A stretch of 59,993 nt of DNA from a virus (lineage: Duplodnaviria > Caudoviricetes), in the IMG/VR virus record IMGVR_UViG_3300044630_000957, positions 1-59,993 of that record; one strand, given 5' to 3'. Within the stretch, counting starts at the first letter, position 1. Each line of letters begins with the position of its first letter. Position numbers and translations under genes: made by a program. This document shows positions 8,392-59,993 of this stretch, in pieces. A model generated the notes under the pieces. It was not told where the DNA came from and made no database searches. It saw only the letters and a list, made by a program, of their open reading frames with translations.

Positions 8392-8393
8392 TA

Positions 8394-13566: not shown

Positions 13567-13778
13567 CACCGATCCGCCTTGTTATCCAATTTATCTTCGA
13601 TCCGGCGAAGGTGCGTCATCACCTCGTCGAACTTCTTGTCAATGGCGTTGAACCTCTCTTCACCAAAGCCAAGGCGCGCCTCCATGAGGGTAAGCCTGTT
13701 GTTGAGGTTGACCCAGACCGTTATGAGGCCGCCGATGAAGGCCAGCACGGTGACGATGGTGTTGATGTCAAAGTCCAT
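13566..13778 (-). CDS. Small TM plus coiled-coil protein (holin / XhlA-like candidate)
   Basis: 70 aa; N-terminal TM helix and a C-terminal coiled coil (LRRIEDKLDNK). Confidence 0.65.
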   Translation of the reverse strand: MDFDINTIVTVLAFIGGLITVWVNLNNRLTLMEARLGFGEERFNAIDKKFDEVMTHLRRIEDKLDNKADR

Positions 13779-14735: not shown

Positions 14736-17700
14736 TTACTGTTCCTTTGCTTCTAGGGCTTTTACCTTATTTGTGAGTTCTTTTACAGCCTCAATCAGCA
14801 GGCCGATAGTGGCGTTGTAATCCACTGCCTTGATGTCGCCGTGATCGCGCACAGCTTCCGGCAGAACCGTTTCGATTTCCTGCGCGATGACGCCAGCGTA
14901 CCGCTGCTCTTTATCATCAAGGTCTGTGCGGGTGTATGTAACGCCCCGTATCTGGTCTAGCTTGTCCAGTGCGTTTGGAATTGTCTCGACGTTGGCTTTG
15001 ATGCGTATGTCTGAGAACGCAGTGACGTTGCCGGTGGCTGTTATAGCGCCGTATACATAAAGACCACGCGACCCAGCCTGACCGATTTCGACGTTTGTCC
15101 CTGCCGTGGCTTTAATCATCGGCGCACCGACTGTAAGGTCCCAAACCTGCCAAACACCCGCACTGGCAACATCAAAGGAACATTCGGCACTGGCGGCAAC
15201 GAGGATGTTAACTCCAGTGTTCCACGTTATGTCACCACGCCAAGTCTGAACGCCCAAGCTAACGGTTTGAAGGACCGAAGTGCCATTTGGGTCTACATAG
15301 AAGCCGCTATCATTGTTGTCGTACATGATTGGCGCGTAGAAATTGACATTCGACCGAGTAAAAGCACTTCCGTTCCCGATATCAAACAGAACCGCACTGT
15401 TTTCGATGTTAATGAACTGGAAACCGCCATAGGCAGGACTTGCCCGGAAACGCTGTCCTGTATAGAAACGGATTTCTAGCGGCTGCGTCCACGCCCCAGC
15501 GGGCTTGCCTATACGGTAATTAGTGTCGCCGTCAGAGTGGAAGTTGATCCATAACGAGCCACTTGTGGTGACGTTTTGACCCCCAAGGTAAATGGACGAT
15601 GCTGATGTATCGGTAGATTGTGCAATAAAGTTAGCACGGTTAAGGTTGCTGAAACCGTTAGGGTCAAGGTAATAGCCAGTGTCGTTGCTGTCGTAGAAGA
15701 TTGGTGCACGGACGTCAGCAGTGACAGAAAGAGTGCCGCCCATCGACATTGTCATACCGATTGCCGACGCTACGCCAGCATAACCGGGTGTAGCCGATCC
15801 CCACCAAAAACGATTGGAGGTATCAATACCGAAGCCCGCGCCAAGTTGACCGGCGCGGGTTAGGCCGTAGTAGGAATAGTTGTTACCATCAGTTGCGCGT
15901 GTAACCGCTATCTTACCGTAAGGATCATTTGTTTGCCCACTATCGTAAACGCCAAGATTTTGGGCAAGAAGTGTAATTAAACTCGACGTGCTGGCCGCGT
16001 CGATGAAAAATCCGGTGTTGTTGCTATCGTAGAAGATAGGTGCGCGCATAGAAACGTCGCTCTGAGTAAACCCTGCGGACCCGAAAAAGTAAGCACCGCC
16101 GTCCCAGAATAGGTACTTAGAACCTCCATCGGCAAAGTAGTAGACGCCTGTAGTTCCACTACTACGGCGTGAATAAACATCGCCGTTACCTTGAATTACG
16201 GTGCCACCATCAAACAGTACCTGACCGCCCAACCGCGAGCCAGCGGCGGGATCGAGATAATACGCAGTGTTGTTGCTGTCGTAAAAGATCGGTGCGCGGA
16301 AGTCACCACTGGCAGCGAACGTAGCGCCGCTTGGGGCGTCGGCCCAACCAGCGTAAATCTTCGACCATGCGCTCCAAGCACCGGCTTCACGGAAACGAAC
16401 AGATGGATACGGAAGTCCGCCTACTGCGGTACGAGGCCAATAAAACTGACTGGCGTAGTCAGAATAGGGGTAGTTTGACCCCAGACCAAGGCTAAACCCG
16501 TAATACTGGGTAGCACCAGAAATGCCGGGGCCATTCGTGTTACCTTGTACATACCTTACGCCGAAATTGGTAATTGCATTGAAATCAGTTTGCTGACCAT
16601 GCACTTGGTTCATGTTATTGAACGTGGCGATTGCGCCAAGGACGTTTCCACTTGCCACATTTAGGTCATTAAGGACCGATGTGCTGGCCGCGTCGATGTA
16701 GTACGCGGTGTTATTGCTGTCGTAGAAGATCGGAGCGCGGGAGGAGCCAAAAGCAGTGACGAAGTTACCCGTGTTGATGCCGAGAGCAATAGTCCCAGTG
16801 CCGGTTACGTCTGACGAAGACCCGTTAACCCAGAAGTACATACCAGCATCGGCGGAAGTGTAATCAACGCCGATACCTGAATATTTAGCGTTTGCGGAGT
16901 TGAACACCAGTACGGGGAAAGTGGCCGCGAGCATCATGTTGCGGTTCCAGCCAGCCGTCATGGCTGTGCCGCCACTATTTACCAGTGTGCCGTTGAGGTT
17001 GGAGCCAGATGCGGGGTCGAGGTAATAACCCGTGTTGTCGCTGTCGTAGTATATCGGGGCGCGCATGTCCCCGTTATTGATTTGGAGGCCGGTGCTGTTC
17101 CACGAGGCGACAGTAGTCCGAAGAGCGGGGTTGATGGTGTCAGACGTTCCGTATTGCAGAATGCCACCGTTGTAACCTGCAATGGCAAGTTGGTCGCTGG
17201 GGTTTGCACCATAATTACCAAATACGACGTAACCGCCCATGTTGTTATCTTGGAAAGCGATACCGGAATAAGTGGCATTATCCGCTGAATGACGGAACAG
17301 AAGGTAGTTGTTGCCGGAGCTATCAAGAATGCCAGTTACACCGGAAGGGAGCGCGCCGATCCCTGTCGGCGTTGACGCAACTACATGTGACTTTGCCAGT
17401 GGTGTAACCGTGCCGATACCGACATTTCCGCTGGGGTATTTGATGGTCAGGCGCGGCGTTGTTCCTGCCTCGATAATTTGGAAATCATCGCCAGTTGTCT
17501 GCAAGTCGTATGAATAGTTAGTCGCAGAGCCGATACGCACATAGCGGTTCGCTCCGTTGTTCAGTGTTAGATTGCCTGACGTGATAAGATTGCCAGCGGT
17601 GTTTAATGAGGTCGAACCAGTAGGATCAAGATAATAGCTCGTGTTCGCACTGTCATAGAAGATTGGCGCACGGACATCGCCATTCGCAGTGAACGAACCA

Positions 17701-20700
17701 GAGCTATTTAACGTAGCTTTTGTCATCATCGTATTGTCGGAGCCGTTTTCGGTTCCGAAATACATTATGTTTGAGCCGTATACGATTGCGCCATGCTGAC
17801 CCGCAGAGGCACCAAATGCAATACCATAAGCGGCAAAGGCTGTTGCAGGTTCATATATGTTACCGATGCCGACACCCGCACCGATATTTGACGGATCAAC
17901 ATCTCCGCCGGTTACGTAAACAGCATTTAATCTCGAACCGCCAGCCGGATCGAGGTAGTAGCTCGTGTTCGCGCTGTCGTAGTATATCGGGGCACGCATA
18001 TCGACGTTGGCCGTGACGTTACCGCTGCTGTTGATCGAAAGGCGTTGCGTGTTGCTTGTGAGGAAATTTAAGGGTATCGCGCCGGGTGTTACTATTTCGG
18101 CTGCGGATGAGTTGACCCCAAAATAAGCGATTGCGGTTCCGCCTACCTTTAACGCGTTGATTGCTGATGTAGCGCCGTTGGTTTCGATTAACCCGCGACC
18201 ACTTGTGCCGTAAACACTGGTGGCTCCGCCAACTATCACGTTACCGCCGTCACCCTGCAAACACAGATTTGTAGGTACGCTACCAGCGTATGCCTGTAAC
18301 GAACCTACATACCCCTGCACAGGGTCGTTGATATACCCCATCTGCAAACGGTAAGCGGTGTTGTTTGTGGCCTCGCCAATCTGGAGTTGGTTCCCACCAG
18401 CAAAGGTTGTTGGTGTTGTTGCGGGGATAAGCGTTAGACGCCCGCCGAAGTCCGTGGTAGTCCCCACCAGCAAGTTGCCGCTGGCGTTGATGCGCATACG
18501 TTCAGTGAAAGCCCCCGCCGCGCGCTGTCCAAAACGCATAACATCTGCTGTGTTGGTAAAAATCTGCAAGCCGTTACTGTCGGGCGTGCCGATGCCATAG
18601 TCAGCGGTGTAGCTGTAAAAAGACTTACTGATAGGTACAATTATGTTACCTTCAACACGCAGCCTCTCCACTGGTAAAGTGGTGCCAATACCGACATTCG
18701 TGCCGTCGTCGTATATAACCGACGCGCTGACAGCCGACGTGCCGTTACCCTTGAGAACGTAGCCCGATGACAGGGTCGTTGCGCCTGTGCCGCCATTGGC
18801 GACGTTCAGCGTGCCTGCAAGAGTGATCGTCCCGCTGGTGGTGACTGGGCCGCCAGACGTCGTCAGGCCGGTGGTGCCGCCGCTGACGTCGATACTCGTA
18901 ACGGTGCCCGCGCCACTCGCGGGCGAGGAGATAGTGAAGTTCGGGTACGTGCCGGTCACGGTCGTAGCGCCAGATCCTGTCAGCGACACAACCTGATCTG
19001 GGGCCGTGTTGGTGACGGTGATAGAGCCAGAGGACGTGATAGGGCCGCCAGAGACGCTGACGCCAGTTCCCGCAGTCAGGTTGACGCTGGTGACGGTGCC
19101 GGTGTTTGACGTAAAGCCAGACGGATTGCTCGCGGGGTACGCTCCGAGGTTCGTCAGCGCAGTTGCCGCGCTCGTCGCGCCAGTACCGCCATTAGCGATG
19201 GCAAGTGCGCCAGACGTGATCTGCGACGCAGCGATAGCGATTGCAGACGACGACGCAGACGTAATCTGACCCTGCGCGTTGACCGCGATGACAGGGACGG
19301 AGGACGCGCTGCCATAGGTCGATGCGCTTACGCCTGTGTTCGTGATGCTGAAGACCGTACCGGTCAGCGTCAGGCCAGTGCCCGCCGAGTACAGGACTGG
19401 CGCGGCGAACTGCGTGAACGTAATCGGCGTTGTGCCGACCGTAATCGGCAGTGGCGTCTGCTGCACCCACGACGTGTTGGACAGCGTCGATCCCGCCGTG
19501 ACAAGGAAGAAGTCGCCCGCGTCGATCTGGTCAACGCCAGTGCCTGCGCTGTCGAAGTCTGTTGCGCGTGTCAGGATGTACGGCGTCGAGCCGTTGCCGA
19601 CCTGCGTGACGGTGTAGACGCCGTTATTGGCCCCCGCCGCCTCGTCCTTGACCAAGATGCGGTTGCCCGCAACCACGGCCACGCCGTCGACCGAGAGTGC
19701 GCCGTTGGCATTGGCCGTGAGCGTCGCGCCGACGCCAGAAGTGCCGTTGTTGTACGTGTTGGCAGGCAGAGCCGCAGCCGTTGCCAAGCGCACGGACTGA
19801 TGGAAGTTGATGCCTGACGCGATGCTGTCGGCATACGCCTTGTTGACGATGTCGGTGCCGTTGACTGGCGACGTGCTGATTGTGCCTGTGGTGAGCGCAA
19901 TCGACGTGATGTCGGTGTTGGCACCAGAGGCCGCCGCGCTGAGGTTCGTGCGCGCCGTGGCGGCCACGCTCGCGCCTGTGCCGCCATTGGCGATGGCAAC
20001 GATGCCCGTTACGTTTGAGGCCGTGCCGGTCGTGTTCTGGTTGAGCGTTGGGATGTCCGCCGCAACGATAGCGCGGAACGTCGGCGTGCCTGCCGAGCCG
20101 TTCGGTGCCGCAAGGACCGTGTTGGCCGTCTGCGACGCGAAGTTGGACGGCAGGACGGCAAGCGTCCCACCAAGTGTCAGCGAACCTGCGGACGTCACTG
20201 TGCCGCTCAGGCTCAGGCCGCTGACGGTGCCGGTGCCTGAGACTGACGTCACCGTACCTACGTTAGATGTGAAGCCCGAAGGGTTGCTTGCGGGGTACGC
20301 ACCTAAGTTCGTTAGAGCAGCGACTGCGTCCGTTGCGCCAGTACCGCCATTGACGATGGCAAGCGTGCCGTTGAGGGTCAGTGTGCCCGCCGACGTAATT
20401 GGGCCGCCGGTAAACGACATGCCCGTTGTGCCGCCGCTGGCATTGACGCTGGTCACGGTGCCTGCGGTGCTGTCGTTCGATGTGATTGTGAAGCTAGGGT
20501 ACGTGCCAGTGACGGTCGTCGTGCCTGCGCCTGTTAGGGATACGACCTGATCTGGCGCGGTGTTGGTGACTGTGAACGACGGGTAGCTGCCGGTGACTGA
20601 GATTGCGGTGCCGCCTGTCAGCGCCACGACCTGATCGGGCGCAGCGTTGACCAGAGAGCCGCTGGCGAGCGTCAGACCATTGCCGACGGAGATTTCCTCC

Positions 20701-21695
20701 GCAGCGCCGACTGATGCCGTAGTGCGGCCTAGAAGCCGCGCAGAGGCCAATGTCAGGCCGCTGGCGGTGTATGCGCCCGGCGCGACGTAATCAATGCCTG
20801 CGGTGGCCGCAGACAGCTCTGTGCCGTTGCCTTTAAGCAAGCCGCTCACGGTCGTCGAAAGCGTGATAATCGGTGACAGGGTCGGGCTGGCAACGGTGCC
20901 CGCAAAACCGTTGGCGGTCGCGACGGCAACGCTGATTACGGTGCCCGCGCCTACCTCAGTCCAGAAGGGCACGCCGCCGGGGCCGCCAGAGCGCAGAACC
21001 TGCCCAATGCTTCCGGCGGTGGTCAGATACAGCTTGTCGTTGCTAGAATAGACGATGGCACCGGCAACAGGAGACAGACTGTTGCCAGTGCCGCCACGGG
21101 ACAAGGGGAGCACGCCTTGCGTTTCCGTGGTGTCGCTCAAGTCCACCGCAGGGTGGACGTGATCTCCACGCGCGGCAACAGTCGAGACACCGGAGGAACC
21201 GGGACCGAGAGGCTCAGGCGTTGTAGATGAAAAGATTACAGCGAAAGAACGGTTGGCGGAAAGATCTCCGCCGCCGGTCAGACCCGCGCCAGCCGTGATT
21301 GTGCGGCTGGTGGGGACGTAATTTGCGAGTACGATAGGTGCCGAGGTCGCACCCGTGACGCGGCCCTGCGCGTTGACCGTGAGGACTGGCACGCTGTCGG
21401 CGGCACCGTAAGTGCCAGCCGTGACGCCTGTGGTGGTCAGGCGGCTGTCATCGACACCGCCCGGCAAGATGAAGAGCGTGCGGTTGGTCGACAGATCTCC
21501 GCCGCCACCCAGACCGCTGCCTGTGTTGATTTCACGCGAGGACGGCACCGCGCCGACGGCAGCGATGTTGGCGAACTGGACCTTGAAGGTGCGTCCGTCG
21601 ATGATGTACGGCATGTAGCCGAGTGTGCTCGTTCCCTGATATTCAGGGAGGCCGGTGATGCGGGTAGGGATGAGATTTGTAGGGACGTTGCTCAA
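14736..21695 (-). CDS. Tail fibre protein 2 (2319 aa) with C-terminal peptidase S74 chaperone
   Basis: GGTG repeats, eight RAPIFYDS-type repeats, C-terminal FSDIRIKANV...AGVIAQEIE.VLPEAV...VDYN; TTG start overlapping the upstream TGA. Confidence 0.92.
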   Translation of the reverse strand: MSNVPTNLIPTRITGLPEYQGTSTLGYMPYIIDGRTFKVQFANIAAVGAVPSSREINTGSGLGGGGDLSTNRTLFILPGGVDDSRLTTTGVTAGTYGAADSVPVLTVNAQGRVTGATSAPIVLANYVPTSRTITAGAGLTGGGDLSANRSFAVIFSSTTPEPLGPGSSGVSTVAARGDHVHPAVDLSDTTETQGVLPLSRGGTGNSLSPVAGAIVYSSNDKLYLTTAGSIGQVLRSGGPGGVPFWTEVGAGTVISVAVATANGFAGTVASPTLSPIITLSTTVSGLLKGNGTELSAATAGIDYVAPGAYTASGLTLASARLLGRTTASVGAAEEISVGNGLTLASGSLVNAAPDQVVALTGGTAISVTGSYPSFTVTNTAPDQVVSLTGAGTTTVTGTYPSFTITSNDSTAGTVTSVNASGGTTGMSFTGGPITSAGTLTLNGTLAIVNGGTGATDAVAALTNLGAYPASNPSGFTSNVGTVTSVSGTGTVSGLSLSGTVTSAGSLTLGGTLAVLPSNFASQTANTVLAAPNGSAGTPTFRAIVAADIPTLNQNTTGTASNVTGIVAIANGGTGASVAATARTNLSAAASGANTDITSIALTTGTISTSPVNGTDIVNKAYADSIASGINFHQSVRLATAAALPANTYNNGTSGVGATLTANANGALSVDGVAVVAGNRILVKDEAAGANNGVYTVTQVGNGSTPYILTRATDFDSAGTGVDQIDAGDFFLVTAGSTLSNTSWVQQTPLPITVGTTPITFTQFAAPVLYSAGTGLTLTGTVFSITNTGVSASTYGSASSVPVIAVNAQGQITSASSSAIAIAASQITSGALAIANGGTGATSAATALTNLGAYPASNPSGFTSNTGTVTSVNLTAGTGVSVSGGPITSSGSITVTNTAPDQVVSLTGSGATTVTGTYPNFTISSPASGAGTVTSIDVSGGTTGLTTSGGPVTTSGTITLAGTLNVANGGTGATTLSSGYVLKGNGTSAVSASVIYDDGTNVGIGTTLPVERLRVEGNIIVPISKSFYSYTADYGIGTPDSNGLQIFTNTADVMRFGQRAAGAFTERMRINASGNLLVGTTTDFGGRLTLIPATTPTTFAGGNQLQIGEATNNTAYRLQMGYINDPVQGYVGSLQAYAGSVPTNLCLQGDGGNVIVGGATSVYGTSGRGLIETNGATSAINALKVGGTAIAYFGVNSSAAEIVTPGAIPLNFLTSNTQRLSINSSGNVTANVDMRAPIYYDSANTSYYLDPAGGSRLNAVYVTGGDVDPSNIGAGVGIGNIYEPATAFAAYGIAFGASAGQHGAIVYGSNIMYFGTENGSDNTMMTKATLNSSGSFTANGDVRAPIFYDSANTSYYLDPTGSTSLNTAGNLITSGNLTLNNGANRYVRIGSATNYSYDLQTTGDDFQIIEAGTTPRLTIKYPSGNVGIGTVTPLAKSHVVASTPTGIGALPSGVTGILDSSGNNYLLFRHSADNATYSGIAFQDNNMGGYVVFGNYGANPSDQLAIAGYNGGILQYGTSDTINPALRTTVASWNSTGLQINNGDMRAPIYYDSDNTGYYLDPASGSNLNGTLVNSGGTAMTAGWNRNMMLAATFPVLVFNSANAKYSGIGVDYTSADAGMYFWVNGSSSDVTGTGTIALGINTGNFVTAFGSSRAPIFYDSNNTAYYIDAASTSVLNDLNVASGNVLGAIATFNNMNQVHGQQTDFNAITNFGVRYVQGNTNGPGISGATQYYGFSLGLGSNYPYSDYASQFYWPRTAVGGLPYPSVRFREAGAWSAWSKIYAGWADAPSGATFAASGDFRAPIFYDSNNTAYYLDPAAGSRLGGQVLFDGGTVIQGNGDVYSRRSSGTTGVYYFADGGSKYLFWDGGAYFFGSAGFTQSDVSMRAPIFYDSNNTGFFIDAASTSSLITLLAQNLGVYDSGQTNDPYGKIAVTRATDGNNYSYYGLTRAGQLGAGFGIDTSNRFWWGSATPGYAGVASAIGMTMSMGGTLSVTADVRAPIFYDSNDTGYYLDPNGFSNLNRANFIAQSTDTSASSIYLGGQNVTTSGSLWINFHSDGDTNYRIGKPAGAWTQPLEIRFYTGQRFRASPAYGGFQFINIENSAVLFDIGNGSAFTRSNVNFYAPIMYDNNDSGFYVDPNGTSVLQTVSLGVQTWRGDITWNTGVNILVAASAECSFDVASAGVWQVWDLTVGAPMIKATAGTNVEIGQAGSRGLYVYGAITATGNVTAFSDIRIKANVETIPNALDKLDQIRGVTYTRTDLDDKEQRYAGVIAQEIETVLPEAVRDHGDIKAVDYNATIGLLIEAVKELTNKVKALEAKEQ

Positions 21696-34478: not shown

Positions 34479-34507
34479 GGGGTATGAAATTATTTTCATT
34501 ATAGGGC

Positions 34508-34559
34508 TTGCAATGCCTAATTGCATCGTCTAGGTACTGTCTATCAGCAACGAAGGAGA
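34508..34559 (+). promoter_or_regulatory. Early promoter P1 with palindromic operator and conserved leader
   Basis: TTGCAA-N17-TAGGTA; TGCAAT-N5-ATTGCA; leader ATCAGCAACGAAGGAG. Confidence 0.85.
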
Positions 34560-37743: not shown

Positions 37744-37862
37744 GCCGCCCGATAGGCACCATCGCCGTCCGCAAGAGCGGGAAACAGTACGGCATCCGAA
37801 AGGGTCGAGCCTACAAAACTCGCGTTATTAACGGCGTCCCGTTCATCACAAGAATATTATGA
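37740..37862 (+). CDS. Small basic peptide (40 aa), not in the ORF track
   Basis: ATGA coupling; MSRPIGTIAVRKSGKQYGIRKGRAYKTRVINGVPFITRIL. Confidence 0.55.
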   Translation: MSRPIGTIAVRKSGKQYGIRKGRAYKTRVINGVPFITRIL

Positions 37863-37882
37863 ACGAAATGTTTCGATAGCTA

Positions 37883-37933
37883 TTGCAATGCCTGATTGCA
37901 TCGACTAGGGATTGTTTATCAGCAACACGGAGA
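37883..37933 (+). promoter_or_regulatory. Early promoter P2 with operator and leader
   Basis: TTGCAA-N17-TAGGGA; TGCAAT-GCCTG-ATTGCA; ATCAGCAACACGGAG. Confidence 0.85.
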
Positions 37934-40068: not shown

Positions 40069-42134
40069 GCGAGGACGACGACATGGCAAGCGTAAGGGCT
40101 ATTGCGCCCAAATTGCTTTCGCTGGAAGTGCCAGAGGAACTGCGTTCAGTTCCCGCGTGGCTCATCTGGCGCTTTGAGAAATACAACAGTGAACCAAAGC
40201 CACGCAAGGTGCCCTACTGGACCGACGGCACCATCCGTCACGGCCAGCAAGGCTCGCCGACCGATCGCACGCGGCTGACGACCTTCGCCGCAGCGCGCGA
40301 CGCCGCAGCGCGCATGGGCTATGACGGCGTCGGCTTCGCGCCGCTGCCTGATTTCGGCTACACCTTCCTCGACTTCGACCACTGCGTCGGGCCGAACGGC
40401 GAGATCCCGAACGACATCGAGCGCATCATTGTGCGTACCTATGCCGAGTACAGCCCCAGCGGCAAAGGCATCCGCGCCGCGCTGAAGGGCAATCTGGGCA
40501 ACCACAAGAGCCACGCCACGCCCGATCGCTTCGGCTTCGAGACGTTCAGCAGCTCAGGCTTCGTGACCTTCACCGGCAACATCCTGCCCGCCTGCGAGAT
40601 GATTGGCCTCCAGAACACAGTGGCTGACGTCGACCCGTACACGATCGACATGTGCGAGAAGCGCTTCGGCTCAGTGCAGAACAACATCGTCGACCCCGAC
40701 GACTTCATGGCAGGCCGCGAGCCACGGCTGGGCCTGACCATTGGGCGCATTGAAGAACTGTTGGCCGCCCTCGATCCCGACATGGGCCGCGAGCAGTGGA
40801 TCAAGACCGGCATGGCCGTGGCCCATGAGACTGACGGCGGCGACGACGGCTTTGATCTGTGGGACGACTGGTCGAGCAATGGCTACACTTACCCCGGCAC
40901 TGAAGGCCTGCGCGTCCAGTGGGACAGCTTCGAGCGGCGCAAGGGATCGAACCGCAAGCAGGTCACCATGGCCTCGGTCATCAAGATGGTGAAGGATGCC
41001 GCAGCAACGCGCCCCAGTAAGGCGGCGAGCGCCCAAGAGGTGTCGGCCAAGGCCGATGCGCTCGTCGCAGAGCTAGGGGCTTCAGAGGGCGTGTATTCGC
41101 CTGCGGGCTACACTGGCAAGTTCCCTGTCCTGTCTGCCGATGAGATGACCAAGCAGAAGACGGCTAAGTGGCTCATCAAGGGCGTGCTGCCTGCCGCCGA
41201 CATCGTCACGATCTTCGGCGCGTCAGGCTCAGGCAAGAGCTTTGTCGTGCTTGAGATGGCGGCCTGCATCGCACTGGGCGTGCCGTGGCGCGGCCACAAG
41301 GCCGAGAAGGGCCGCGTCATCATCATCGCGGCGGAAGGCGCAGGCAGTTACGGCAAGCGTATTAAGGCGCTGGCGCAGTATCTAGGCATCTCGCCCAAGG
41401 ATCTGGACATTGGCGTGATCGTCGTGCCGCCGAACCTCATGGAGGAGGGCGACGTGACCGAGCTCGCCGCGTCGATCAAGGCGGTCGGCGACGTGTCGCT
41501 GATCATCATCGACACCTTTGCGCAGGTGACGCCGGGCGCGAACGAGAACGGCGCGGAGGACATGGGCCTCGCCCTGTCCAACGTGCGTGTGCTGGGCGAT
41601 GCCACAGGCGCGACGGTCGAGCTTGTACACCACGCAGGCAAGGACGCGCACCGAGGCTCACGCGGCTGGTCAGGCATCCGTGCCGCCGTCGACGCCGAGC
41701 TGGAAGTGACGCGCGACGAGGACAGCGGCGCACGGCAGATCCGCACCACCAAGCAGAAGGATGGCGAGGACGGGCTGAAGTGGGGCTTCAAGTTGGAGAC
41801 GATCCTGCTGGGCCTCGACGAGGACGGTGACGACATCACGAGCTGCGTCGCGGTCGAGGACGAGCTGCGTTCGCCAGCCACTGGCGACAAGAAATCAGTG
41901 AAGCGTCGCGGGCGTGTTGAGACCCATATCCTTGAGGTCATGACCACCTTTGCAGAAGACGCAGTTGTTCGCGCAGAGGAGCTCATCCAGAAGGCTTGCG
42001 ATATGTTACCACCGCCAGAACAGGGCAAGCGCGACATCCGCCGTCAAACGGTTGTCAGGGCAATTCAACAACTTAGCAAGGAGAAGGACGGCCCGCTGCG
42101 CATGGAAAACGGCATTGTAATTTTTTACGAATAG
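40065..42134 (+). CDS. Primase-helicase (primase-polymerase N-terminus, PriCT-like domain, RepA/AAA_25 helicase)
   Basis: DFDH and EYSPSGKGIR primase motifs; W..WS helical domain; GASGSGKS, IIIDT, HHAGKD and RGWSG. Confidence 0.9.
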   Translation: MSEDDDMASVRAIAPKLLSLEVPEELRSVPAWLIWRFEKYNSEPKPRKVPYWTDGTIRHGQQGSPTDRTRLTTFAAARDAAARMGYDGVGFAPLPDFGYTFLDFDHCVGPNGEIPNDIERIIVRTYAEYSPSGKGIRAALKGNLGNHKSHATPDRFGFETFSSSGFVTFTGNILPACEMIGLQNTVADVDPYTIDMCEKRFGSVQNNIVDPDDFMAGREPRLGLTIGRIEELLAALDPDMGREQWIKTGMAVAHETDGGDDGFDLWDDWSSNGYTYPGTEGLRVQWDSFERRKGSNRKQVTMASVIKMVKDAAATRPSKAASAQEVSAKADALVAELGASEGVYSPAGYTGKFPVLSADEMTKQKTAKWLIKGVLPAADIVTIFGASGSGKSFVVLEMAACIALGVPWRGHKAEKGRVIIIAAEGAGSYGKRIKALAQYLGISPKDLDIGVIVVPPNLMEEGDVTELAASIKAVGDVSLIIIDTFAQVTPGANENGAEDMGLALSNVRVLGDATGATVELVHHAGKDAHRGSRGWSGIRAAVDAELEVTRDEDSGARQIRTTKQKDGEDGLKWGFKLETILLGLDEDGDDITSCVAVEDELRSPATGDKKSVKRRGRVETHILEVMTTFAEDAVVRAEELIQKACDMLPPPEQGKRDIRRQTVVRAIQQLSKEKDGPLRMENGIVIFYE

Positions 42135-42139
42135 GGGGG

Positions 42140-42194
42140 TTGCAATCCCAAATTGCATTCCCTATATAGCGTCTATCAGCAACGCAAATAGGAG
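42140..42194 (+). promoter_or_regulatory. Early promoter P3 with operator and leader
   Basis: TTGCAA-N17-TATATA; TGCAAT-CCCAA-ATTGCA; ATCAGCAACGCAAATAGGAG. Confidence 0.85.
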
Positions 42195-52648: not shown

Positions 52649-55039
52649 TTAGCGGCGCATGCCGTAGTGTCGTGCCAGATCGGCGATGGATGCCATGCCG
52701 CCGTTGCGGAACGCCTGCACCGTGCCGCCACGGTACATGTTCCGCATGGGTGCCGCTGTTGCGTCGTCAACGACCACATATTCGCCCAACTCAGGATCGA
52801 AGGACGCGATCTCCACGTCCGCTTCGTAGTCGCCGCCGGGCATCGTAGATAGGCCGCTGAGGTCTTCTTCGGTGAGCGACGGGACAACCACTTCGAAGTC
52901 ATCTGAAAGCTGGCCGCGAGTGTCTTCAGGCGGCGGGGCAATCGTCGATGCGGCGGCAACGCCACCCTTCGTGACGCGGCGCTCAAGCGCCCGATCAGCC
53001 GCTTGCTGAACCGGAGCAGCCGCCTCAAGACGTGTCAACACCTCTTCAAGTTCTTCGGGGCTGCTGGCTTTAAGCATGCGCGCCAACTGTGTGTACGTCG
53101 CCCGCGACACGTTAGCGTTCCGCATGTTAGACAGCAAACGTGCAGTTCTGTTGATGATGTTGCCCGGCGTGGGGTTGACAAAGAGGTCAACAGCGTTTTC
53201 GATGTTGCCGCCCGCAATCTGGTTTTGGATGTCTTCACGTTCAGCAAGTCGGCGGAATGACGCGCTGTTGCCGGTGGCTTGACCGATGTCGTTAAACAAC
53301 TGTTCTTCGCGCCGTAAAGCCGCTTCGAACACTTGAAACTCGCCGGGGTCCATGACCGCTTCAAACTTTTTCAAGGAGTTTTCCTTGAGGAGAGTGTTGG
53401 CGAAGTTTTGACGCCTACCTGTATCCTCAAAACCCTTCAGAACTTGCTGCATAAAGCCAGTCTTGAAGGCCTGCTGTTCGCCCGGAGAGTAATCCTTCAT
53501 AAACTTGCCAAACTGCTGCCAGCGCAAGCCACCAGAGTTTTTGCCCTGTTCGAGGGCTTCCTTAATTTCGATGTCGCCCTTGTATTGCTGACGCGCGGCC
53601 TTGAACTCCTTCGGGCCGATGGCATCAAGCCGCTCTACAAAGGCGTCGCGCAAACCGCGCAGGGACGTAGCTTGGCCGCCCTGACCGCTGGCGTAGAGCG
53701 AGTTAATTTTGCGGTCGAGCGCAATCTTAACCTGATTAAGGGTGCCCATGTCTGGTGCCATTTTGCCGGTAGGCGAGAGACCAATAACCGAGCCTTCCGC
53801 GTCCATGATTGGGTCGAAGACTTCACGCAGTTTGAACTGCGACGGGTCTTGCCCTTTAAGAAGTGCTTCTTGTTGCTGCAAGCGCGAGTTTTGAAGCGCG
53901 TCTATGTACGCCGAGCGGATTGCAGGATCGTCCAGAACCTGCATGATACGCGGATCGCGGACCTCCACGTTCTGCCAGCCTGAGCCATAATTCCTCTCGG
54001 CGTTGTCGCGCAGCGTTTTGAGGACGCTCTCCTCCGACGCAAAATAATCTGGCGTCGGCACCGCCTCTTTCGCAAGGGCTTTGACGCGCTGCGGGGCACC
54101 GGACTGCACGTTGAACAGTCGGCGGACGAGATCGGCTTGTTCGCCGCTTGGTGTATTAACCACGTTTTCAGTAAGACGGCTAAGTTCTGGCGATAGCCCG
54201 CCAAGGGGCAAGTTGTCTATGCCATACGTCTTTGCCAGTTCGGCCAATTCGGCAATTTTTGCGTTGTCCAAACCGCCTTCGGCGATGCGGCGGCTGATGA
54301 TGCCCGCTGCGCGGCGGGCTGCCTCTTCGTCGCCCATCTCCGTGCCACGCGCAGATAATACGCCGCGACCAAACTTGACCGCCTCGCCAACGCCGTACCC
54401 CGCAGCACCCAATGGAACGCCGAGGGCACCACCGATAACAGCTTTGCCCGCGCTGTCCACAAACCCTTCGCCCGAACCGAAACCCGCAGTGCCGCCAGCA
54501 ACTGCGCCCGTAGCGGCAGCTCTGGCGAGAGGTGATGATAATTTGCTAATCCCTGTACCGGCTTGGATTGCCCGTCCGGCGACGTTAACACCGGGGACGA
54601 ACATGGTTCCGATGCCACCTGTGATATTCAGAGCGGGGCCAAGGACGGGATACGCCTCGTTGAACTTGGCGCGCTCAAGCCGGATTTCGTTGACCAGCTC
54701 ATCGTAACTCTTGTCTGAGAACGCGGCGCGAGCAGCCGCCTCAGCTTCGTCGCTGAACTCAAACGCCGCGCCGCCCGCCAATTCGCGGAGGCCGCCAGCG
54801 ACCGTCTCACCCGCCGTAAGTTCGGGAGGCTCAATCTCAATCTGAGGCGCAACATCGGCAGTACCGCCGCCCGGTGCCTCATATACCCGAACCAACTGCT
54901 CCAACTCTTCGTCATTAAGCGTGTCAAGCTGCGCGGCAGTGTTTTCGTGCTGCTGGATGAGGTAGGCAAGCTCCTCGTCCGACATCCGGTCGATGGAGGA
55001 GTATCTGTTGGGCGTAGCATTTTGGCCGGTGTTTATCAC
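52649..55039 (-). CDS. Putative ejection / DNA transfer protein (796 aa)
   Basis: Gly/Ala-rich membrane-like segment followed by a long helical region, typical of podovirus ejection proteins. Confidence 0.7.
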   Translation of the reverse strand: MINTGQNATPNRYSSIDRMSDEELAYLIQQHENTAAQLDTLNDEELEQLVRVYEAPGGGTADVAPQIEIEPPELTAGETVAGGLRELAGGAAFEFSDEAEAAARAAFSDKSYDELVNEIRLERAKFNEAYPVLGPALNITGGIGTMFVPGVNVAGRAIQAGTGISKLSSPLARAAATGAVAGGTAGFGSGEGFVDSAGKAVIGGALGVPLGAAGYGVGEAVKFGRGVLSARGTEMGDEEAARRAAGIISRRIAEGGLDNAKIAELAELAKTYGIDNLPLGGLSPELSRLTENVVNTPSGEQADLVRRLFNVQSGAPQRVKALAKEAVPTPDYFASEESVLKTLRDNAERNYGSGWQNVEVRDPRIMQVLDDPAIRSAYIDALQNSRLQQQEALLKGQDPSQFKLREVFDPIMDAEGSVIGLSPTGKMAPDMGTLNQVKIALDRKINSLYASGQGGQATSLRGLRDAFVERLDAIGPKEFKAARQQYKGDIEIKEALEQGKNSGGLRWQQFGKFMKDYSPGEQQAFKTGFMQQVLKGFEDTGRRQNFANTLLKENSLKKFEAVMDPGEFQVFEAALRREEQLFNDIGQATGNSASFRRLAEREDIQNQIAGGNIENAVDLFVNPTPGNIINRTARLLSNMRNANVSRATYTQLARMLKASSPEELEEVLTRLEAAAPVQQAADRALERRVTKGGVAAASTIAPPPEDTRGQLSDDFEVVVPSLTEEDLSGLSTMPGGDYEADVEIASFDPELGEYVVVDDATAAPMRNMYRGGTVQAFRNGGMASIADLARHYGMRR

Positions 55040-55743
55040 TTCTTAGTCCCCTTAGCTGCGGCGCGGCGCTGCCGCTCTGCCGCGAGCTGATCGTAGGTGA
55101 AAGGCGATACACCCATCCGAGATTGCTGTTCGGCAACTTTAACGCCGCTGGCAACGATATTCATGAAGCGTTGCAATTCACGCTTGAACTGCACTTCCGA
55201 AGTGGCTGCGTTCATGTTTGCGAGAGCTTCCGTTGCGGATACCCCTTCTGGCCCCGAAATGGCACCAGCACCCTTCAGTTGCTCAAAGGCTTGCATGAAC
55301 GCGCCCTTCTTAACAGCATTCAGCGCGTTGGTGAAGTCGCCTGCGGGTGTCGCCGGAACTGTGCCGATGCCGAAGCCTCCCTTGAACGGATTAGGCATGC
55401 CGACTGCGGCAGAAAACCCGGGGTGCTTGAGAAGAGCGGCCCCCTCGTTAAGCGCCTGCTGCGAGATTGACCGAAGTTTAGGGAGGCTGAACTCCTTCGT
55501 CGCGGCACTTTCGCCGAGCACCGAAGCGCGGCGGTTGCGGTACGCTTCGTCGGCTTGCTGCGCCGGAGTTTTAGGAGCCTGAGGCAGTGGCGTGGCCCGA
55601 AGACGCTCAAGCTCTACCCTATCACGCTCCGCTTTATCGTACTTGGCCTGCAAGTCAGCCAACTTGGCTGCTTCTGCGGTAGCCGCCGATTGCGACGGCT
55701 TAGCGTGATACTTCGGGTCGCTGAATTTAGAACCGCTCATCAC
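55036..55743 (-). CDS. Putative ejection protein (235 aa)
   Basis: GGAGG RBS; AF.QLKGAGAIS..EG motif; helical. Confidence 0.7.
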   Translation of the reverse strand: MMSGSKFSDPKYHAKPSQSAATAEAAKLADLQAKYDKAERDRVELERLRATPLPQAPKTPAQQADEAYRNRRASVLGESAATKEFSLPKLRSISQQALNEGAALLKHPGFSAAVGMPNPFKGGFGIGTVPATPAGDFTNALNAVKKGAFMQAFEQLKGAGAISGPEGVSATEALANMNAATSEVQFKRELQRFMNIVASGVKVAEQQSRMGVSPFTYDQLAAERQRRAAAKGTKK

Positions 55744-56534
55744 CGGCCTCCTCTAGCATAATTAACAATCCGCATTGCTTTTTCAGCAAAGCGCGGCCCA
55801 AATTCCTGAATGAAGTCATCGAGATTAGCTTGTGACGGATCGGAAAGCAAATCAGCCCATGCGACGTCATTGGGTTGGACGATGCTTTCCCCAGAAATTG
55901 GATCGTAGGCTTTACTGTTTTCAATGATGACCGATTTCATCGTTGGTGTCTTATTCGCCATCGCCTCCAACTTCGCCATAGCAAGCGCCGTCGTCACGTC
56001 CTGCTTGGCGAGGCCCAGCCGCTGGGCGAAGCGATCTTTATCCAGTTGCTCAAGCGCCTCGCGACGGCTGATCTCGCCCTCGCGCTGGGCCTTCTGCTGC
56101 GCCGCCAAGACGGGTGAGATATTCTCCAAGATGCCGCCAAAGCCACGACGTGTCGTCGGTGCGGCTAACGCTGCCGACAACTGGAACATACGCTCGCTGA
56201 ACGACGGGGCGTACCGTTTCTCCGCCAAGGCCTTAGCCTGAGCGTCGTAACGAGCCTGCTGCTCCGCCGCGAGCTTGTTGAAGGCCGTCATGGACGTCTG
56301 GACATTGGGGTTGTTGTACACTGCCAGACCGCCAGCCTCCGCGTCAGAAGCGGCAGCAGCGTCTGCATCAGCGGCAGCAGCGTCTGCGGCAGCAATGGTG
56401 TTAAGGCCACCCAAATCTTCGTTCATCGTCTCTTCCTCTGCGTCGGTTGCCGCTGGCAGCATGCCTAAGCCTTGCTTCATTTTACGAATGTGTTCTATCT
56501 GCCACGGGGCAAGGGGCGGGTTTTGCACGATCAT
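55740..56534 (-). CDS. Putative ejection protein (264 aa)
   Basis: Ala-rich and helical; coupled on both sides. Confidence 0.7.
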   Translation of the reverse strand: MIVQNPPLAPWQIEHIRKMKQGLGMLPAATDAEEETMNEDLGGLNTIAAADAAAADADAAAASDAEAGGLAVYNNPNVQTSMTAFNKLAAEQQARYDAQAKALAEKRYAPSFSERMFQLSAALAAPTTRRGFGGILENISPVLAAQQKAQREGEISRREALEQLDKDRFAQRLGLAKQDVTTALAMAKLEAMANKTPTMKSVIIENSKAYDPISGESIVQPNDVAWADLLSDPSQANLDDFIQEFGPRFAEKAMRIVNYARGGR

Positions 56535-57577
56535 TTACCTTTCAGCGAACCGACGATGCCCGCCGCAGCGGTTAGCGCGCTGGCAATATCTTTCCCAGTC
56601 GATGAGTACTCCTGTTTGACGCCTGACGGCGAGATACCGTATTCTTGCGTCGCGCTTGGGACGCCGGAGGCAACACCTTGGAACGTCTTCATCATGTTGT
56701 TGATCTGCTCTTGCGGATAGCCCTGCTGACGCAGGAAGTCCTGATACGCCACGTCGAGGTTCTTCTGACCCTGCTGCTGCTCCAGTGCGCCGACGCCGCC
56801 CAGCGCGCCTGCGCCAGTGAGGCCGAGGCTCTGCGCCTGCTCGCCGAGTGTCGACAGAGCGCCAGAGGCGGCGAGCTGCTGTTGCTGCTGCGCCCGCGCC
56901 AGATCGCCAGCCGTGCTTGCGAGAGTGCCGAAGCGCGACAGGTCAGTGCCTGCGAGCCCAGCGGCCTGCGTGTAACCGGATTGGAGCGCCTCAGTCTGCT
57001 TACCGAGGATGTCGGCACTGGTGTCGCGAAGGGCGCGCGCCGTGTCGGTCATCATGCCCGACGGCGTGCCGCCTAAGCCACCACGCCCGCCGAAGCCGAG
57101 CTGACCGGCTTGGATGTAGCGGCCTTCGATTGCAGGCATAAGGTTTTCTGTGAGGTTGCGCGTGCCCAGCTCGCCGATGCGGTTGACAACGGCGTCGGTA
57201 TACGGGTTCATGTACTGGCCGATGTTCGACACGGATGTCTGACCGGCCTGCGTCAAGAACGGCTGTGCGGTGTTTAACGCGCCCGGCGCATTCGCGGCGC
57301 TCTGCGCAACGCCTGTGGCTTGATTGAATAGTGGCTGGTACGCCGTGGCGGCGTTGCCGGTCATGCCGAAGGCTTGCTGCTGCGTCGGCGTGAAGCCCGC
57401 AACGCGCGGCATCGGCGCTGTCTCGTATGGGCGATTGGCTATAGCCTGCTGCCCCGACAGGATGTCCATCGCGTAGTTGGTGTACCACTCAGGCAGCACC
57501 TGCTGCTTGGTCATGTCCGTGAGGGCGGAGCCTTGCGGGATTGCGGCCCCCTCGGCTAGGAATGAACTGATAGCCAT
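56531..57577 (-). CDS. Putative ejection / pilot protein (348 aa)
   Basis: Q/A/G-rich; VAGFTPTQQQAF, YMNPY and QGYP segments; hydrophobic C-terminus. Confidence 0.7.
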   Translation of the reverse strand: MAISSFLAEGAAIPQGSALTDMTKQQVLPEWYTNYAMDILSGQQAIANRPYETAPMPRVAGFTPTQQQAFGMTGNAATAYQPLFNQATGVAQSAANAPGALNTAQPFLTQAGQTSVSNIGQYMNPYTDAVVNRIGELGTRNLTENLMPAIEGRYIQAGQLGFGGRGGLGGTPSGMMTDTARALRDTSADILGKQTEALQSGYTQAAGLAGTDLSRFGTLASTAGDLARAQQQQQLAASGALSTLGEQAQSLGLTGAGALGGVGALEQQQGQKNLDVAYQDFLRQQGYPQEQINNMMKTFQGVASGVPSATQEYGISPSGVKQEYSSTGKDIASALTAAAGIVGSLKGK

Positions 57578-59993
57578 TAAATGCGTCCTCCAGACAGATA
57601 TGCTTCGGCCTTCTTGGCGTTAGCACTAAAACGGCCCTTTGCCAACTTCTGACCCTTGTGTTTACGAACTTTAACTCGAAGCTCGTCCAGCTTCTTTGCG
57701 CCAGCCTTATTCGACCCGTCACCCAGCAGGGCGACAGTCTCGGCATCGATCACATATTCGCCGTCGGACAGCACCGCAGGGATGTCGTCGCTGCGGCCAG
57801 TGCCGGGGCCGTTGACTGCAAATTCGCTGCGCTTGGACGAGCCGCCCTTTGCGAAACGCATGTTGTCAACGTCAGGGGCGTACATCGACGGCCCCCTCGG
57901 CTCGTTTGGAATAGGTGTGGTGATAGGCGCAGGGTTGGCTTGCGATGCGTAGTCGAAGAAGTTAAGCTCAGGCCGTGTGCCATAAGTCAACCAGTCTACG
58001 TCGCCCATCGGACGCGCTGTGCGGTTCCCGCCGATAACACCGAGGCCGCCTGCGGATGGCAGCTTGGCCGAGAAGATCGGGTTCAACCGGCCTGTGCCGC
58101 CGCCACCGTATGTGCCAGTTTGGCCTGAGCCACCGCCACCACCGCCGACTAAGCCGGAAATGAGGCTCGCGATGCGCAGGTACTCTTCGAGGCCGAGCTT
58201 CTTCTCGTCTGTCAGCGCGGGGTCGGGCTTTAAGTCCAAAGGACGGAGAGGTTCTAAGGGGGGCATCACCGAAACCGATGTGGGTTCGGGCCGCTCAATC
58301 TTAGAACCTTCTACAACGATTGGCTCCTTGTAGTTTTCCATACCGGAAACCCTGTCGATTACGCCGAGATCGGTTGGCATAAAGGTGCCGCTTGCGGGCT
58401 GCTCAATCCTCTTAGTAGCGTCTACAACAATGTCATTTGGTAAAACCGCTGGAGCTGTAGTCGTAAGCGCACCTAAGTCTATGCCGCTAGTAACCGCGCC
58501 GGGGCGCTGACCTGTTACCTTGATGATGTCTTCTTCGGCGATCTGGTCGGCTCCAGTAGGAAAGTTCTCCAGTCCGTCAATCGCGGGGATTACTTCAGGA
58601 GACAAACTGCCCAAGTCTAGTCCGCCAGTAACCGCGCCGGAGCGGGTTCCTGAAACGACAATCTCGTCGGTGTTGTTTACCACGGGGTCTGCTGTCAGAC
58701 CGGCTAAGTTTAACCCGCCAGTAACCGCACCGGGAACAGAGCCAGTGACGTTAATAATATCGCCATCGTATCCGCTGGTGTAATCCGCATTCGTTAAGGA
58801 GTTGGGTACCTTGGTGTTGGCGGCGTCATCCAAATACTTTTGCTCAGGCGTTTTATACCCACCAAGATTTATATTTGGCGTCGAAATGCTGGGCGTAGCA
58901 TTGACTATGATTTCCGCATTTGGGCCGCCGTAGACGGCACTACTATCAACGCCACCGCCAGTGCTGGTACTTGTGGCGGGCGCTTGATTTATGCCAAGAC
59001 CTTTAACTATGTCGGGCGTGACGTAACTAAGCGCGCCAGAAGCGACACCACCGAGGAGGGAACTCTTTAGGTCTTGTCCGGTAGCCAATCCGCCTGCGGT
59101 GGCACCGAGGCCCGTACCAATCGCGGTGCCCGCTCTAAGACCAATGTCCCCAACCTTACCTAAAGGGGCACCAAGAAGGGAGCCACCAGCGGCGGAGAGG
59201 CCGCCCATCGCCGCGCCCTTGAGAATGTTGTCACCCTTTAGGCCCGCGCCTGCGGCACCGAGGGCAGTCCCAAGACCAATTTTACCCGCAGTACTTGCAA
59301 GAAGCGAGCCTGCCGACGCGCCCGCAGTCAGCGGGATCATCGCCAGCGGCAGCAAGGTGCCTGCCACGTTGGCAATCGTACCCAGCGTGCTCTTGTTCTT
59401 CTTCTCATACGCGACGGTCGAATAGTTACCAGTCGGGTCTGCGGTTTGGATGCTGTAGTTCGCCTTGCGACCAAACTGGTTCGTCAGGCCCTGACCTAAT
59501 TCGGTTGCCTTGCGCGCGGCGTCAAAGCCTGTACCCTCGAACACGATCTGGTTGGTGCGGTGGTCAACGAGGCGTACAGGCTGGTCGGCCCGCACCGCGA
59601 AGGTGTTGCCACCCGTCTGCGACGTGGCGTTGCCTTTGTTAGATAAAGGCGCGCTGATGTACTGCAAATTAGGATCGGCTTGGTATATGCCGCCCATCGG
59701 GCCGCCACCGAAGTTCGAACCGAAATTCATCCCGTACAGGTTGTTTAGGCCGCTCAGGTCAAGTTTGCTAAAGTCAAACGTGTTAGGGTCGAACGGCACT
59801 TCGGCAGGCACAGCCTCTGTCGTCATCGGCTCGACTGCCGCTTGCTGGTACGGCTGCTCAACAGGCGCGGGCAGCATGCCGCCACCGCCGTATGGCAGCT
59901 CGTTATAGCCGCCCATGTCGTATCCGCCGTACATCATAGGCTGCTCGACAGGCATATACTGCTCGACGGGTGGGGTGTACTGGTACGGCTCGC
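57577..59993 (-). CDS. Putative ejection protein, allele B; 5' end beyond the right edge, about 850 aa if completed with 2125-2260
   Basis: Glycine zipper, TonB-box-like repeats, C-terminal FAKGG...GPGTGRSDDIPAVLSDGEYVI domain resembling tape-measure C-termini. Confidence 0.8.
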   Translation of the reverse strand, partial: EPYQYTPPVEQYMPVEQPMMYGGYDMGGYNELPYGGGGMLPAPVEQPYQQAAVEPMTTEAVPAEVPFDPNTFDFSKLDLSGLNNLYGMNFGSNFGGGPMGGIYQADPNLQYISAPLSNKGNATSQTGGNTFAVRADQPVRLVDHRTNQIVFEGTGFDAARKATELGQGLTNQFGRKANYSIQTADPTGNYSTVAYEKKNKSTLGTIANVAGTLLPLAMIPLTAGASAGSLLASTAGKIGLGTALGAAGAGLKGDNILKGAAMGGLSAAGGSLLGAPLGKVGDIGLRAGTAIGTGLGATAGGLATGQDLKSSLLGGVASGALSYVTPDIVKGLGINQAPATSTSTGGGVDSSAVYGGPNAEIIVNATPSISTPNINLGGYKTPEQKYLDDAANTKVPNSLTNADYTSGYDGDIINVTGSVPGAVTGGLNLAGLTADPVVNNTDEIVVSGTRSGAVTGGLDLGSLSPEVIPAIDGLENFPTGADQIAEEDIIKVTGQRPGAVTSGIDLGALTTTAPAVLPNDIVVDATKRIEQPASGTFMPTDLGVIDRVSGMENYKEPIVVEGSKIERPEPTSVSVMPPLEPLRPLDLKPDPALTDEKKLGLEEYLRIASLISGLVGGGGGGSGQTGTYGGGGTGRLNPIFSAKLPSAGGLGVIGGNRTARPMGDVDWLTYGTRPELNFFDYASQANPAPITTPIPNEPRGPSMYAPDVDNMRFAKGGSSKRSEFAVNGPGTGRSDDIPAVLSDGEYVIDAETVALLGDGSNKAGAKKLDELRVKVRKHKGQKLAKGRFSANAKKAEAYLSGGRI
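57810..59993. repeat. Imperfect terminal redundancy, copy B
   Basis: Matches 1-2124 with SNPs and a replaced central block (58372-59380). Confidence 0.95.

Follow-up and report, generated by a model that had tools for sequence, protein, structure and literature searches.

Why should a phage protein that probably travels inside the virion carry, in its central part, a series of short segments that resemble the TonB boxes of bacterial transporters? The question is raised by IMGVR_UViG_3300044630_000957, an IMG/VR virus record whose entire length of 59,993 bp was analysed and is referred to here as the window, and in particular by a gene for a protein of ~850 amino acids (aa) that occurs at both ends of the record in two variant forms, alleles A and B. 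A first-pass annotation of this DNA had read six TonB-box-like motifs in each allele. The TonB-box likeness in allele B is real and far beyond chance, and engagement of TonB by these motifs is the best single explanation that we can offer for it, a tentative reading that we place somewhat below even.

Two alleles and a motif of transporter type

The two ends of the contig form an imperfect direct repeat (positions 1-2124 versus 57810-59993, with 84.1% identity over 2046 ungapped columns), and since the ends overlap in this imperfect way the real genome is ~57.8 kb in length. The flanks of the terminal ~2.1-kb repeat are 88-100% identical, whereas its central cassette (609-1478 versus 58424-59347) is 59-75% identical, in agreement with the earlier observation that the DNA of the alleles differs across most of this stretch; most of the motif array falls within the divergent cassette, as does the glycine-rich segment. 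Alleles A and B are two co-assembled strain variants of one gene, joined at the ends of the assembly. Their products, P0001 and P0002, are 67% identical (492/734), are nearly identical to one another at both ends, and diverge from about aa 203 to aa 511 of B. The consensus start of the family, MNYIPGF, matches the N-terminus of allele A. The parts of the gene are as follows, with aa positions of allele B numbered as in P0002 and with matrix scores that are explained further below.

2-2260, minus strand: allele A (P0001, 753 aa), with the true N-terminus and with the C-terminus cut by the window start
57577-59993, minus strand: open reading frame (ORF) of allele B, open at the window end, N-terminus cut
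57577-59955, minus strand: P0002, 792 aa of allele B from an internal ATG at 59955
59386-59673, minus strand: predicted folded alpha/beta domain, aa 95-190 (AlphaFold2 pLDDT 76-95)
58999-59388, minus strand: Gly/Ala-rich helical ("glycine zipper") segment of membrane type, aa 190-319 (helices predicted at pLDDT ~65)
58276-58998, minus strand: linker with the motif array, aa 320-560, predicted by AlphaFold2 to be disordered
58894-58917, minus strand: AEIIVNAT, aa 347; 10.4 bits with the transporter matrix, strict pass
58738-58764, minus strand: GDIINVTGS, aa 398, with one residue inserted; fails both matrix cut-offs
58642-58668, minus strand: DEIVVSGTR, aa 430; 16.8 bits, strict pass
58504-58533, minus strand: EDIIKVTGQR, aa 475 (matrix site aa 476); 7.2 bits, lenient pass only
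58408-58437, minus strand: NDIVVDATKR, aa 507; 12.1 bits, strict pass
58300-58326, minus strand: EPIVVEGSK, aa 544, common to both alleles; 18.9 bits, strict pass
58144-58203, minus strand: conserved block KKLGLEEYLRIASLISGLVGG, aa 585-604, with a short second hydrophobic helix (589-600); the top conserved block in the family
57580-57864, minus strand: conserved C-terminal domain, aa 698-792, GPGTGRSDDIPAVLSDGEYVIDAETVALLGDG..., with most of the invariant columns of the family
491-1072, minus strand: linker of allele A with its six quoted strings; one strict and three lenient matrix passes
1049-1072, 941-967, 818-841, 710-736, 599-625 and 491-517, minus strand: the strings of allele A

All twelve motif strings that had been quoted are present verbatim, six per allele. 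The motif copies, 3-6 in number, lie at aa 347-552 of the protein, and their consensus across linkers with 3-6 copies each is P-[ED]-[ED]-I-[VL]-V-[TSNDEK]-[AG]-x-[KR]. A plain pattern, [DE][ILV][ILV]V.[GA], is found three times in P0002, against a mean of 0.05 in shuffled sequences (at least three in none of 5000 shuffles), and once in P0001, a count that was equalled in 160 of 5000 shuffles.

The yardstick for the likeness was a matrix trained on bacterial transporters. A Plug-domain search of 13 genomes in the class of an alphaproteobacterial bin (G001) gave matches in 10 of them, and 30 Plug loci, together with 20 more regions from G014, a genome rich in transporters, supplied 50 segments from just upstream of the Plug domain. 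A random-start motif search on these segments returned [ED]-[E.]-I-[VIT]-V-T-A-[RS]-[RK]-R. The matrix was built from 39 of the 50 sites, with no phage sequence in the training; the 11 sites that were dropped, probably mis-picked by the search, had either no aliphatic core or a Cys or Trp. Two cut-offs were taken from leave-one-out scores, a strict one at 10.2 bits (the lower quartile) and a lenient one at 6.8 bits (the lowest tenth).

Applied to allele B, the matrix gives strict matches at aa 347, 430, 507 and 544, i.e., at four of the six strings, and a lenient match at a fifth (aa 476), and of the TonB-box-like motifs first claimed for this allele GDIINVTGS alone falls away. A further strict match, at aa 757 of P0002, lies in a predicted C-terminal helix and is not counted in the array. 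For allele A the description as TonB-box-like was overstated: the shared EPIVVEGSK is its single strict match, the two copies of NPIISEGSK are lenient ones (one strict and three lenient of six), and GGLQVTAS, DGITAIGNR and NDILVKAS fail the matrix. Among control proteins there were one strict and four lenient matches in the 14,759 aa of the other 32 proteins of the window and no strict and three lenient matches in 18,105 aa of ORFs from the loci of phages CRP-902, HTVC023P and RW, which amounts to one strict match per 32,864 aa of phage proteins when these controls are pooled; shuffled versions of allele B have a mean of 0.022 strict matches.

The likeness to alphaproteobacterial TonB boxes that the first-pass annotation had pointed out is thus both quantitative and specific when judged by the transporter-trained matrix. 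The TonB boxes of alphaproteobacterial transporters, e.g., EEVVVTASR, ETIVVTARKR and GNIVVTARKR, have nearly the same pattern of 9-10 residues as the phage motifs, namely an acidic residue, I/V-V-V, T/S, A/G, any residue and R/K within a flexible segment, and the linker motif agrees with the transporter consensus of the presumed host clade, a clade deduced from relatives of the phage only. The two classes of protein differ in that transporters have one box, N-terminal to the Plug domain, whereas the phage protein has 3-6 internal copies and no Pfam match to a Plug or barrel domain, and in that the residue after the hydrophobic core is more variable in the phage motifs.

The setting of the array was modelled with AlphaFold2, as a monomer of P0002 with a 75-sequence alignment (mean pLDDT 48.7). 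That the array follows a long hydrophobic segment of glycine-zipper type, as had been claimed, is borne out: G and A make up 42% of aa 191-320, aa 189-222 form a hydrophobic stretch, and helices are predicted at aa 190-319. From aa 320 to 590 the pLDDT falls to 27-50, and the sole predicted helices are short ones at aa 370-378 and 589-600; the linker proper (aa 320-560, pLDDT 27-49) has no predicted secondary structure besides the first of these and no strands packed together. A solenoid built by the repeats folding with one another, the outcome named at the outset as telling against TonB, was rejected as it is not seen in this model, which predicts a disordered linker; a monomer model can neither show nor exclude intermolecular sheets. 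Short strings of the form aromatic-Ala/Ser-x-Gly-Gly were also noted in the protein: PRYAIGGRV at the N-terminus of allele A (2189-2215) and, in allele B, MRFAKGG before the C-terminal domain (57841-57861) and YLSGGRI at the extreme C-terminus (57580-57603).

Conservation of the array in a metagenomic family

A word-seeded search for homologues, in which proteins of 435-1386 aa were searched, found 411 at E<=0.001 among the 8000 candidates scored. Among the best 120 of the 411, scored with the last 60 residues left out, 102 have at least one strict match to the transporter matrix and 114 at least one lenient match, and the stretch at relative position 0.5-0.7 of these 120 proteins holds 184 of 200 strict matches. 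An exhaustive profile search through 1.84 billion cluster representatives yielded 10,649 at E<=0.001 (3,426 at E<=1e-10 and 768 at E<=1e-30). The best 150 of the 10,649, which represent clusters at 50% identity, were scored in the same manner, and 122 of them are at least 550 aa long. Within this long set 87 representatives have at least one strict match, 98 at least one lenient match and 80 at least two lenient ones; 147 of 164 strict matches lie at relative position 0.5-0.7, and the density of strict matches, 1.79 per 1000 aa, is ~60 times that of the control proteins. Motifs such as DEIVVTARKD, EEIIVTGQRL, DDIVVTGTRN and PETVVTAQKD come from distant members.

The motif can also be recovered from the phage linkers without any reference to transporters. 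Both anchors of the linker were present in 60 of 121 proteins, and motif discovery was carried out on 27 non-redundant linkers. Early runs returned the single-copy blocks KKLGLEEYLR and GGFKTPxQKYL, and after these had been masked a repeat motif emerged, with two multi-copy forms, xD[EI]I[VK]VTGQR (mean of 1.8 copies per linker) and PN[DE]I[VL]V[NDK]AT (1.6). The type represented by EDIIKVTGQR in allele B is the top repeat motif of the family in this analysis, EPIVVEGSK is the commonest site in the family, and GDIINVTGS, for all that it fails the matrix, turns up in the fourth round as the variant INVTGSVPGA.

The surroundings of the motifs tell a different story from the motifs themselves. 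In the alignment of 75 homologues they are unalignable, and invariant columns are found almost only in the N-terminal domain, the helical segment and the C-terminal domain; within the window, the two alleles retain motifs in a linker at 59-75% DNA identity. Since the motif is kept while its surroundings cannot be aligned, the array behaves as expected of a selected short linear motif within a disordered stretch that drifts.

The probable virion protein, its neighbours and the likely host

The protein is probably an internal virion (ejection) protein of a podovirus, as argued by the neighbouring ejection families, the Gly-rich membrane-type segment and the absence of tube and sheath genes. Its gene sits at the late operon's end, where two genes for tail fibres (1219 and 2319 aa), an adaptor of SU10 type and an endolysin precede it, and scans of the window detected no tube, sheath or tape-measure genes. 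The putative membrane-active segment is the hydrophobic stretch at aa 189-222, with its predicted helices. The first-pass designation of a putative ejection protein is well served by this context, i.e., a late structural module with the following members of an ejection-protein cluster.

56531-57577, minus strand: downstream neighbour, 348 aa, "DNA ejection protein" family (phrog_4287, E 3.6e-07)
55036-55743, minus strand: neighbour, 235 aa, family "released from the phage upon host infection" (phrog_2534, E 3.2e-12)

The same arrangement at the end of the structural operon, with neighbours of ejection families and a hydrophobic segment suited to membranes, is known from the ejection or internal proteins of other podoviruses (gp14, gp15 and gp16 of T7; gp7, gp20 and gp16 of P22), and the phage protein has no detectable homology to these T7 and P22 proteins. 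More generally, no homology to characterised ejection proteins was found in Pfam, PHROGs, PDB sequences or PDB folds: the Pfam search of the candidate matched no family, PHROG matches of P0002 are confined to the C-terminal domain, the PDB sequence-profile search gave no relative (one row, 3r8e with E 0.0048, falls on the Gly-rich segment and reads as chance) and among PDB folds Foldseek matched none at E<=0.001, the glycine-rich helices giving weak, non-significant rows of Tim22/Tim17 type. A search of the ESM Atlas gave no usable match.

The C-terminal ~95 residues (aa 698-791) match the middle of tape-measure profiles (PHROGs 6090, 25241, 17300 and 5448), and by tblastn this domain has matches in Caulobacter, cyanobacterial and Arthrobacter phages; it is common to proteins annotated as tape measures in other phages, including genes of Arthrobacter siphophages. 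A tail tape measure was considered for the whole protein and rejected, given that the likeness is confined to these residues and the rest of the protein is unmatched, that no long coiled coil is predicted, and that scans of the window revealed an adaptor of SU10 type and neither tube nor sheath genes.

The phage itself probably has a short tail and an alphaproteobacterial host. Its portal protein shares 68% identity with those of the Caulobacter vibrioides phages RW, KcrB, RLK and GB2A; with the portals of Roseobacter and Pelagibacter phages it shares 31-39%. In RW the counterpart of the ejection-protein candidate is gp066c (QDH50427.1, a hypothetical protein of 580 aa), which shares architecture and synteny, as do its orthologues in KcrB, RLK and GB2A. 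The C-terminal 157 aa are 49.7% identical, the 348-aa neighbour is 54.5% identical to the gene beside the RW homologue, and the linker of gp066c carries DEIVVTPSQ, DPVVVNPPQ and DELVIKPP, motifs with Pro-rich tails of which just one passes the transporter matrix. No positional homologue was recognisable in the loci of Roseobacter phage CRP-902 and Pelagibacter phage HTVC023P. More distant analogues occur at the following places.

L099, 1428-3707: analogue in DSL-LC04
L101, 1902-3821: analogue in MW202545
L100, 2907-3791: analogue in Pag-Yong1

These analogues share a plan of Gly-rich hydrophobic segment, repeat linker and C-terminal domain, with linker repeats that differ, and those of DSL-LC04 and MW202545 lie near a gene for a "DNA transfer protein" and an SLT transglycosylase gene. 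The MW202545 analogue has Cys-rich linker repeats together with one EVEITGQRE, and its C-terminal domain occurs twice; the Pag-Yong1 analogue has no linker repeats of this kind. The string EVEITGQRE resembles TonB boxes that were seen in another bacterial bin (G002), and strings comparable to the aromatic-Ala/Ser-x-Gly-Gly ones described above are present in RW gp066c and in the DSL-LC04 analogue.

An assignment of the host from binned relatives was tried and abandoned: the 12 related loci (L004-L015) all lie in bins of discordant phyla (Bacteroidia, Chloroflexota, Opitutae, Acidobacteriaceae and several Proteobacteria). As several of these contigs are 54-63 kb long, they are probably whole phage genomes that were mis-binned into bacterial bins.

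Other features of the window may be noted briefly. The two tail-fibre genes are very large (4828-8487 for the product of 1219 aa and 14736-21695 for that of 2319 aa) and share internal modules (5491-6041 versus 19071-20416), and a 65-nt repeat is present seven times in the larger (15658-18008). An ORF of 335 aa (12562-13569, minus strand), whose sole match is phrog_20531, a family of unassigned function in PHROGs, contains a family of 72-nt repeats with four partly overlapping copies (12941-13240). A 66-nt intergenic element occurs three times in the plus-strand early/replication region, at 34487-34552, 37862-37927 and 42119-42184, the copies being 73% identical. Its core, TTGCAAT..ATTGCA, is palindromic and precedes TCTATCAGCAAC; this element is possibly a promoter or operator. 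The window scan found no tRNA genes.

What the array may bind

If the linker motifs engage TonB, the ejected protein would cross the outer membrane, its helical segment would insert in a host membrane, and the linker would come to lie in the periplasm. There the motifs would attach, through beta-strand augmentation, to the C-terminal domain of the host's TonB, like the boxes of transporters and group B bacteriocins, and the ExbBD-TonB motor, driven by the proton-motive force, would pull or anchor the protein. Such a pull could help to extract the protein from the tail or to span the periplasm, and several copies could provide avidity or successive handholds. A bolder proposal, that a large phage family of TonB-receptor-rich alphaproteobacteria arms its ejection protein with a host-type TonB-box array and that ExbBD-TonB reels the protein and the start of a DNA conduit from the short tail across the periplasm in successive pulls, strikes us as rather doubtful.

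TonB-TonB-box complexes are known from solved structures (BtuB and FhuA with TonB). Genome G014, with 25 Plug-domain matches, has a single TonB_C match, and this TonB C-terminal domain, aligned with nine others (alignment A2), was paired with aa 415-460 of P0002, which hold DEIVVSGTR. The complex prediction that had been proposed as a check reached its mark, weakly, with a score of 0.38 (runs at 0.38, 0.38 and 0.37) versus 0.02 for the best of three controls and 0.00 when an unrelated protein replaced TonB; at least 57% of the contacts agree among the runs, and the pLDDT of the partner is at least 46. This mark is reached by 58 of 80 solved complexes and by 2 of 110 mismatched pairs, and at scores of 0.60 or less by only 7 of the 80 solved complexes but by both of the mismatches. 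The prediction gives weak support and would raise the odds of TonB binding modestly.

Bacteriocins provide the parallel for import. In the TonB-dependent ones (group B colicins, pyocin S2, klebicin C), according to PMC12927319, a disordered segment with a TonB box is pulled by TonB-ExbBD, and one N-terminal box is what they need. A foreign protein that crosses the outer membrane with a box in a disordered region is the mode proposed, by analogy, for the phage protein. The two have no sequence homology, and the bacteriocins are soluble toxins with a single box near the N-terminus, whereas the putative virion protein has an array in mid-protein (aa 347-552) behind a membrane-type segment. The TonB-dependence of phages T1 and phi80 is classical and is ascribed in PMC11658791 to the receptor and not to a TonB box on a protein of the phage. 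The full-text literature searched, which includes few subscription journals, yielded no report of phage ejection or tape-measure proteins with a TonB box, nor of TonB-box-like motifs in the T7 and P22 proteins named above.

A number of points weigh against TonB as the partner. Thr follows the hydrophobic core in 31 of the 50 transporter sites, versus T or S in ~38% of phage sites; allele A keeps only one strict match; 35 of the 122 long representatives have no strict match; and Pro takes the place of [GA]-x-[RK] behind the motif in phages like RW. A PROSITE-type enterobacterial TonB-box pattern has no match in the protein, a result of little weight. The transporters of bin G002 have boxes of beta/gamma type (QRVEITGS...), which the related contig binned there, L008, does not mirror, an uninformative result as the binning is unreliable. 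The linker of the DSL-LC04 analogue has five copies of YAGMDLSSAQGTLGGPS and no matrix match, and the unrelated repeats of the distant analogues suggest that the basic role of the linker is independent of the motif, so that spacing may be its primary task. The arrays, moreover, grow by tandem duplication. With regard to the complex prediction, a score of 0.38 falls in a range in which wrong calls outnumber right ones, except for pairs that were likely from the start, and, as solved TonB-TonB-box complexes exist, the pass may reflect likeness only. Finally, the activity of a TonB box is described in a review (PMC11658791) as governed less by side chains than by local secondary structure, a looseness that makes mimicry and coincidence both easier.

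That loosely defined class is also what gives room to a second explanation, which we consider on the unlikely side and the most serious of the alternatives: the motifs would be beta-strand modules for a partner other than TonB, through self-assembly, with further copies or with other ejection proteins, into a trans-periplasmic conduit or through binding of another periplasmic host protein (e.g., a Tol component), and their TonB-box likeness would be convergence on a simple scheme of an acidic cap, three aliphatic residues, a small residue and a basic one. The much greater variability at position +3 than in transporters, the Pro-rich tails of RW type and the low complex score all sit well with such a partner, as does the blindness of monomer prediction to intermolecular sheets. 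What speaks for TonB over convergence is that the likeness extends over ~9-10 positions, flanking acidic and basic residues included, at the ~60-fold density given above, and that the unrelated protein put in TonB's place scored nothing.

Less probable still, and in our view unlikely, is a linker that is no more than a fast-evolving spacer of adjustable length, with motifs that are a by-product of tandem duplication and are kept for solubility, capsid packing or passage through the tail. Duplication has been at work: in allele A a 111-nt tandem duplication (584-682 and 695-793, 93% identical) has produced NPIISEGSK twice, and a pairwise repeat search found families of 35-nt and 22-nt repeats in allele B, where Tandem Repeats Finder reported no arrays in either allele. 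The wide range of protein lengths in the family (435-1386 aa, which is the range searched) and the quite different repeats that the analogues carry at the same place also fit a spacer. Against it, the codons of the allele B motifs are mostly not repeats at the DNA level, the motif persists in representatives of less than 50% identity amid surroundings that cannot be aligned, and the same 10-residue pattern was recovered independently from host transporters. A role of the motifs as decoys that occupy TonB after infection, the second idea of the first-pass annotation, and thereby shut TonB-dependent receptors and exclude superinfecting phages or bacteriocins, would draw on the same motif evidence as TonB engagement and is highly improbable, as a structural protein present at a few copies per virion could presumably not titrate the cellular TonB pool and the gene lies in the late structural operon rather than among the early genes.

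How the ejection proteins and DNA of short-tailed phages make their transit across the periplasm, and what provides the energy for the first steps, are poorly understood. If TonB is indeed bound by the array, a virion protein would hijack the Ton motor directly, the principle of bacteriocin import would be extended to phages, and the delivery of a phage genome would include a step powered by a host motor, mechanistically parallel to that import. The array would then also offer a signature at the sequence level, found in hundreds of metagenomic clusters, from which TonB-dependent infection might be predicted. If TonB is not bound, what remains is a short linear motif that is strongly conserved within a disordered phage protein and needs a partner.

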